From Saccostrea echinata (Eukaryota): a DNA stretch of 64,000 bases. The stretch spans positions 13,764,001 through 13,828,000 of the forward strand of contig NW_026889755.1 in NCBI RefSeq assembly GCF_033153115.1. The letters run 5' to 3'. Below the pieces are notes generated by a model, which saw nothing but the letters and a program-made list of their open reading frames with translations, was not told where the DNA came from and did no database searches. Shown here in pieces: positions 24,951 through 25,278 of this stretch (position 1 is the stretch's first letter; the number at the start of each line of letters is the position of its first letter). The position numbers were made by a program, and so were the translations under genes.

Positions 24951-25278
24951 TCAGCTTGGGTACAAGGGTATCAGCTGGTGCAGACTCATGTTTGTAATTT
25001 GGGAACACTGTAGGTTTCATATCAACTTGGGAACAAGGGCCTCAGTTGGTCTATATATACATGTTGTTCATGTTAGAACACTGTTTCATATCAGCTTGGG
25101 GACAATTGCCTCGGTTGATCTACATAAACATGCTGTTCATCATAGAACACTGTAAGTTTCATATCAGCTTGGGGCAAGGGCCTCAGCTGCTTTGCTCTTT
25201 TCAAGTATATGACATACATGTACATATGTATGTGACTGGACATTCATAGCATTTTGGGAACAAGGGCCTCAATTGCTA
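24951..25278 (+). repeat. Tandem array of 5 bulged hairpins (about 27 nt, period about 70-83 nt) downstream of YR
   Basis: Units at 24951, 25022, 25091, 25164 and 25247; consensus tcagct-t-gggrrc-aagg-gcctc-agctg with compensatory stem changes. Confidence 0.85.

Follow-up and report, generated by a model that had tools for sequence, protein, structure and literature searches.

Clade-linked arrays of bulged hairpins downstream of the tyrosine recombinase gene in an Ngaro-type retrotransposon lineage of Saccostrea echinata

A decayed Ngaro-type element and its hairpin array

The window analyzed here is a 64,000-nt stretch of the Saccostrea echinata genome (assembly GCF_033153115.1, contig NW_026889755.1, positions 13,764,001 to 13,828,000, forward strand), in which a sequence-only reading had pointed out an array of bulged hairpins directly downstream of a retrotransposon tyrosine recombinase (YR) gene. 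Judged by its coding remnants, the owner of the array is one decayed Ngaro-type YR retrotransposon spanning 7603-25902 (Table 1). Remnants of gag, reverse transcriptase (RT) with RNase H (together RT/RH) and YR are collinear in the window, with ~12 kb of nested insertions separating the two RT parts, and the same order is found in intact relatives, in which the frames overlap and the RT/RH frames, ~550-660 aa long, end at the YR start (Ngaro elements have no methyltransferase domain after RH). Relatives also encode an SGNH hydrolase (Lipase_GDSL_2 matches for L096, E 6e-12, and for L108), and a hydrolase remnant lies upstream of gag in the family's copy on C3. Split direct repeats of the form A1...B1-A2-B2 were found in close relatives (e.g. 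L094, L096, L108 and L125); neither the window copy nor the sequence past the C3 copy showed A2-B2 repeats, and both copies finish in a B-like tail.

Table 1. Features of the array-bearing element, in positions of the whole window; hairpin units were located on the + strand.
Feature	Positions	Strand	Basis
gag remnant (acceptor-like stretch and start region 7603-7837, insertion, body with zinc-finger remnant; stops, frameshifts)	7603..9300	+	84-86% DNA match to C3 copy; tblastn to intact relatives
RT, 5' part	9337..10188	+	Pfam RVT_1 E 1e-6; tblastn
RT, 3' part, and RNase H, broken	22299..22864	+	RVT_thumb E 2e-5; tblastn
YR, main part, frameshifted	22899..23769	+	tblastn 41-46% to intact relative; HSFRI motif
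Non-autonomous DNA-transposon insert, ~1 kb, TTAA at both ends, 17-nt inverted ends, splits YR	23770..24786	.	sequence; C3 copy without insert
Final YR codons and stop (TAA 24818-24820)	24787..24820	+	match to KYIRxP tail of relatives
Hairpin unit 1	24950..24979	+	folding, tip pattern and covariance model
Hairpin unit 2, lower-stem G-C to A-U change	25021..25050	+	folding, tip pattern and covariance model
Hairpin unit 3, G-U wobbles, decayed loop	25090..25119	+	folding, tip pattern and covariance model
Hairpin unit 4, 1-nt deletion	25163..25191	+	folding, tip pattern and covariance model
Hairpin unit 5, lower stem unrelated, tip same	25248..25277	+	stem perfect in C3 copy
Branched structure past array (G-rich arm, variable hairpin, GGTGGC, C-rich arm)	25385..25469	+	conservation in relatives
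B-repeat-like tail, AATAAA at 25808-25813	25449..25902	+	C3-copy homology stops at 25902; start inferred from relatives

The five hairpin units that had been reported are present at 24950-25277, with start-to-start spacings of 71, 69, 73 and 85 nt (a range of 69-85 nt, against the 70-83 nt claimed), and every stem arm quoted for them was found in the sequence. The first unit does begin 130 nt past the YR stop, once the insert that splits YR is recognized. Folded singly, the window units are bulged hairpins with z scores between -0.56 and -2.47, only modestly beyond chance. Units 1-4 are recent duplicates whose spacers were duplicated too, and covariation inside the window copy is thin: there is one clear two-sided change, from G-C to A-U in unit 2; beyond that, unit 3 has G-U wobbles and the stem of unit 5 is a different one. 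The compensatory change that the sequence-only reading had described in this array is therefore slight in the window copy alone and is a property of the lineage as a whole, as the relatives demonstrate below; the window copy is a dead relic with decaying units. Within the window, a covariance model of the window type matched just its five training units, and an Rfam covariance-model scan of the array returned no family (best E 1.6-4.1, far under gathering scores). Ribozyme-like words on the minus strand were considered and rejected, being without Rfam support.

The window family occupies four places in the genome, with two identical copies on C6, one 99% copy on C33 and one copy on C3 that has 84-90% identity and three hairpin units. 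The identical array region on C6 (G000:C6:13747972-13748402) lies 41 kb upstream of the window copy, and this duplicate matches over 3.4 kb at 99.97%; it either arose by segmental duplication not long ago or is an artefact of assembly. Contigs from 4/4 public runs, four sets with a small share and of possible RNA origin, join 23766 to 24783 and thereby skip the YR insert; copies free of the insert are thus present in these contigs, and one copy has one hairpin unit fewer. Many contigs in the runs are related to the TTAA-flanked insert itself, which we take to be Kolobok- or piggyBac-like. No relative was found in the viral contigs searched.

Hairpin arrays and covariation across the lineage

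YR searches of the genome gave at least 150 and at least 142 matches, and 60 elements, picked for long YR frames and differing scores, were taken for analysis. A detector given no motif scored an array behind the YR stop in 28 of the 42 elements of a 5'-hydrolase group and in none of the 16 elements of a 3'-hydrolase group (two of the 60 elements were unclassified); inspection by eye revealed several arrays that it had overlooked, so the true number is at least 28. In the array group the hydrolase precedes gag in 25/42 elements and never comes after YR, and it follows YR in 16/16 elements of the array-less group, which is labelled by that trait. The arrays occur in elements with intact reading frames and are not confined to decayed copies. 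They contain 2-9 units by pattern count, with a single unit in one family, and start 6-275 nt downstream of the YR stop.

At least six types of hairpin tip coexist in this one host. The type I tip reads G-(A/U)CA(G/A/U)G(G/A)G-C, and in subtype Ib, to which the window array belongs, it comes with a U bulge four pairs farther down. Type II combines CAGN/N'CUG and a 5-nt loop with a GU bulge, and four further types are smaller. The unpaired T and a C-G pair beneath the AAGG-type loop are invariant in 26/26 units, so that the bulge and loop noticed in the window stand. The 5-bp inner stem proposed with them does not, as a single position within it fails to pair in 21 of the 25 distinct units; across relatives the inner register runs from the U bulge through 4 bp and an unpaired A/U to the C-G that closes a 4-nt loop, and RNAalifold, run on type Ib, placed a 6-bp stem below this same arrangement, with the C-G invariant. 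The untranslated region (UTR) of the window family has no blastn similarity to those of other families except for one 27-nt match, and its RT and YR are 45-51% identical to those of other type I families; the tip is nevertheless kept.

To assess covariation, units were chosen by tip pattern, which makes the lower stem a fair test and the upper stem not. Among 21 distinct type Ib units from 8 families (the pattern caught 3/5 window units), 83% of lower-stem pairs were Watson-Crick, compared with 41% after global shuffling and 72% after shuffling within families; the observed pairing was reached by 0/5000 shuffles of each kind, and 26/31 two-sided changes within families remain paired. Type II (66 units, 15 families) gave 81%, compared with 43% globally and 67% within families, with 128/194 two-sided changes paired. 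In type Ia, 16/24 two-sided changes remain paired, and types IV and V pass the covariation test weakly (p about 0.03). With window units 3 and 4 added to 24/25 Ib units, the alignment had 91.6% of its cells paired and 60 two-sided cells against 21.7 in shuffles (0/500). The corresponding value for type II, 94.2%, comes from 53/79 units that were hand-picked, with near-duplicates and visibly decayed units left out, so the pattern-based 81% is the fairer figure. Lower stems thus vary yet stay paired beyond shuffles, which bears out the proposal that selection acted on structure and that the arrays are not a mere product of tandem amplification.

Alternatively, the arrays could have arisen by neutral tandem duplication, their palindromes being kept paired through template-switch correction. 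The recent duplication of units 1-4 and the variable unit number (three in the C3 copy, one fewer in the run contigs) fit this explanation; bulge and loop, however, are kept across families with otherwise dissimilar UTRs, the position is fixed, folding is strand-biased, G-U pairs are retained and arrays are missing from one clade. We consider neutral duplication very unlikely and largely refuted. Repeated hairpins within a transposon UTR might also be precursors of small RNAs, as the sequence-only reading had suggested, but the would-be product, the stem sequence, is the variable, unconserved part, and stems of ~10 bp fall far under pre-miRNA length. This suggestion is unsupported, and we assign it next to no probability.

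The sense strand folds better than the antisense strand in 25/25 Ib units, representing 8/8 families, and in 49/76 type II units. At inner lower-stem positions G-T exceeds A-C by 26 to 11 (p 0.02, units not independent) and, in held-out families, by 43 to 14, counts that the T- and G-rich composition of the UTRs may inflate; one upper pair varies among G-U, A-U and G-C in 25/25 units. This G-U bias favours sense RNA as the folded form. According to PMC7192593, the single-stranded cDNA made by DIRS-1 is antisense, which makes RNA the likelier folded molecule here. These data bear on a further suggestion of the sequence-only reading, that the tyrosine recombinase acts on the hairpins as folded single-stranded DNA, in the manner of integron attC. 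Bulged hairpins do adjoin the YR gene, and DIRS-1 makes a single-stranded cDNA, but the array of neither the window copy nor the C3 copy contains the core boxes GTTRRRY/RYYYAAC, the units are about 30 nt long with a conserved tip and a free stem, the antisense strand folds worse, and the element's repeats and ends are elsewhere, with repeat boundaries and element ends downstream of the array in 19/20 elements. The suggestion is unsupported, and we regard it as highly improbable.

Related tips were also found in other organisms. In a metagenome sample of 80 loci from 58 families, 46 of which have at least 300 nt after YR, a hexamer defined in this genome occurs in at least three hairpins on the sense strand in 9/46 families, whereas the count is 0 families for the antisense strand and 1 for coding sequence farther upstream. 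Two metagenome families combine a type II stem with a type I loop, and type II-like tips from other organisms are placed next to the type II clade in a tree that includes metagenome elements (92/96 rows; deep nodes unresolved). The type Ib covariance model had no match in 72/80 metagenome loci; the tips share the loop and not the bulge geometry.

Further Ngaro-like elements lie in the window itself. The minus strand at 43800-49400 has a second one, whose hydrolase precedes gag and whose type II array has four units (about 44430-44720); its YR has six near-identical genome matches. On the plus strand at 441-3900 is a third, decayed and of the array-less architecture, with the hydrolase after YR. 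A decayed RT remnant at 53273-54488 (minus strand) also matches the Ngaro RT query, and an RT fragment at 20404-21414 (minus strand) is presumably LINE-like. The window additionally contains two related 168-bp tandem arrays in opposite orientation (28044-29250 and 55715-57240) and a 128-bp tandem array (32737-33600).

Candidate readers of the array and the B-repeat boundary

A tree of RT/RH plus YR was built from 59/63 rows (L099, L127, L139 and L140 were excluded for their coverage), without named Ngaro reference elements. In it, separate clades at support 0.99-1.0 are formed by the array-less group, by type I, by type II together with its variant, and by each of types III, IV and VI. A selected structure with a strand bias, a set position after YR and a link to element lineage is best explained as a cis-acting signal on the element's sense RNA. 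Its fixed tip, free stem and variable repeat number form the pattern of a protein-binding site with avidity, and a fixed tip on a free stem is likewise the protein-binding pattern of MS2 hairpins, iron-responsive elements (IREs) and retroviral psi hairpins. Among the three roles proposed by the sequence-only reading, an RNA-level protein-binding or packaging array ranks best as a candidate. As at least six tips in one host are each tied to an element clade, the reader would be encoded by the element, most likely Gag acting through its CCCH plus CCHC zinc fingers; each tip would bind one protein copy, repeated tips would supply avidity, and Gag would pick its own family's RNA for assembly of a particle or ribonucleoprotein. 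That the arrays serve as multivalent binding sites for the Gag of their own element has, in our view, about an even chance.

The Gag fingers are invariant (C-x8-C-x4-C-x3-H and C-x2-C-x3-H-x4/5-C). A predicted Gag structure (pLDDT 86) matched no fold clearly (best values: E 1.4 in Foldseek, Z 5.4 in VIA), and Pfam gave weak CCCH-finger matches alone, all under cut-off. A basic xFR peptide before the fingers was considered as a mark of the array clades and rejected, as similar words follow the fingers in array-less elements. YAG occurs within 16 nt upstream of the gag ATG in 23/24 array-clade elements and in 1/6 others, which suggests that Gag of the array clades is made from spliced RNA. Such a Gag would be unable simply to take the RNA from which it was translated, so the array clades would need specific signals, and these would replace cis preference. 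Between hydrolase and gag, seven elements (L085, L086, L087, L101, L104, L111 and L130) contain a second hairpin array, with another tip and family-specific loops, that probably sits in an intron upstream of gag; the second array of the C3 copy (L006:4846-6161) has about 20 units of ~63 bp. In array-less elements (L109, L113, L114, L119-L123, L128 and L141), the hydrolase frame, which lies close behind the YR stop, often seems to start past a pyrimidine-rich AG, noted by eye and not counted, which suggests that their hydrolase may be expressed by splicing.

Several observations weigh against a hairpin signal read by Gag. Within families, covariation of type III is weak (p 0.08), and type VI fails the test (p 0.54). 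In the held-out metagenome families, where covariation in a fixed register is weaker, 8/9 lie above the shuffle mean and just 3/9 reach p <= 0.05. Equilibrium folds of whole UTRs give P > 0.5 for a unit's own stem in 61/145 units, and 0/4 tested window units favour their own stem; in these folds, pairing between units competes with the local hairpins. Array-less elements carry the same Gag fingers, and because tip type and protein share one tree, co-evolution is indistinguishable from inheritance. A 3' array would be present on spliced and unspliced RNA alike and could not alone select the genome. Finally, ANGG tips recur in more than one clade and in other hosts.

This last recurrence is why we retain, as unlikely though not negligible, an alternative in which a host RNA-binding protein reads the array as a 3' UTR signal for nuclear export, stability, translation or germ-line localization. 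Known analogues are the five IREs of transferrin-receptor mRNA, Smaug elements and the export elements upstream of the 3' long terminal repeat (LTR) of simple retroviruses. In favour of this alternative, the array lies between the stop codon and the terminal repeat, close to the latter, 9/46 metagenome families and more than one clade share the C-ANGG-G tip, and the elements, which appear to be spliced, must export unspliced RNA. A host reader is hard to reconcile, however, with at least six clade-bound tips that occupy the same position within one host; the IRE loop CAGUG occurs in 0/40 type I units, there is no Rfam match, and the Smaug loop CNGG is found in 28/40 type I units but in 0/5 window units.

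Past the array, the B repeat begins at most 8 nt from the TGG[CG] of the branched structure in 25/27 elements of both architectures, compared with 3.2 expected, and in the relatives that have the structure (L082-L138 and L146-L219) it starts inside the TGGC. The fold of this structure is not beyond shuffles in the window copy (z -0.08); in the C3 copy z is -2.28. The A2|B2 junction varies between copies of one family (L093 and L102), and in L118 the order is reversed, with the hairpin array inside the B repeat and past the boundary structure. If B-A is read as a split LTR, the B boundary is where the plus-strand primer would act, which makes the boundary structure a candidate priming or strand-transfer signal. 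A broader reading, which we hold only tentatively, is that the lineage uses a clade-specific hairpin code, in which the element's own zinc-finger Gag would read both arrays, that of the pre-gag intron and that behind YR, and the branched structure would fix the start of the B repeat and mark the point of priming or strand transfer.

The same neighborhood could instead suit an array whose tips bind RT (or YR or the hydrolase), holding the enzyme beside the boundary structure to set up reverse transcription, for which hepadnaviral epsilon and the 3' stem-loop of stringent LINEs provide loose comparisons. The tips are bulged stem-loops, the array is directly upstream of the structure where the B repeat starts, and PMC7192593 describes the primer of DIRS-order elements as undetermined. 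However, array-less elements retain the boundary structure, indicating that arrays are not needed for it, and a variable number of units suits a polymerizing binder better than one RT. We consider recruitment of RT improbable.

Relation to known elements and RNA signals

The arrays are a real, selected cis-RNA motif family in a known transposon superfamily. Like other Ngaro elements, the intact relatives have gag, overlapping RT/RH and YR, an SGNH hydrolase and split repeats; the array clades depart from the published description in having the hydrolase before gag and two hairpin arrays. The excerpts of 10.1101/2021.08.05.455354 that we used define Ngaro by split direct repeats and describe an optional hydrolase after YR, and those of PMC6681497 likewise give the split repeats and describe the function of the hydrolase as unknown. 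In the parts covered of the Ngaro literature searched, neither a 5' hydrolase nor hairpin arrays are mentioned. Such arrays are not described in the portions consulted of the wider literature searched, including PMC7192593, PMC6681497, 10.1101/2021.08.05.455354, PMC2632668, 10.64898/2026.07.28.741278 and PMC5135761 (the founding Ngaro papers, Repbase and supplements were outside this scope), and the words 'hairpin', 'stem' and 'tandem' are absent from PMC3783388 and PMC3266345. The motif family is probably undescribed.

The arrays bear on how DIRS-order elements recognize their own RNA and start reverse transcription. They are short, defined RNA targets that come with natural controls, namely tips that differ by clade in one genome and an array-less sister clade, and these controls make Gag-RNA recognition directly testable through swaps. 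If the hairpin code is true, it would provide the first known RNA recognition and priming signals for DIRS-order elements, along with a natural set of hairpins and proteins that form orthogonal pairs in animals. Specific pairing between tips and Gag fingers would further make them MS2-like tags that evolved in animal cells.

The hairpins resemble retroviral psi, the MS2, PP7 and Qbeta operators and HIV TAR in being short, with a 5' bulge and a G-rich or purine-rich loop, and in having a tip that seems to be read by sequence and a stem by shape; psi stem-loops are bound by the CCHC nucleocapsid. Here, unlike in those systems, the candidate signals are arrays of 2-9 spaced 3' units with other loops. 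As in the transferrin-receptor IRE array and Smaug elements, bulged 3' UTR hairpins with a conserved loop are repeated, but the bulge is U and not C, CAGUG is absent, CNGG is not kept and tips differ by clade in one host. Integron attC shares a bulged hairpin beside a tyrosine recombinase; the arrays differ from it in lacking the core consensus, in being too short, and in having a reversed conservation pattern and the wrong strand bias. In stringent LINEs, as described in PMC5135761, a 3' UTR stem-loop is recognized by the element's own RT. There, as here, a 3' RNA structure of a retrotransposon is proposed to serve family-specific recognition, although theirs is a single terminal stem-loop in a non-LTR element and ours is an internal array that precedes a terminal repeat.
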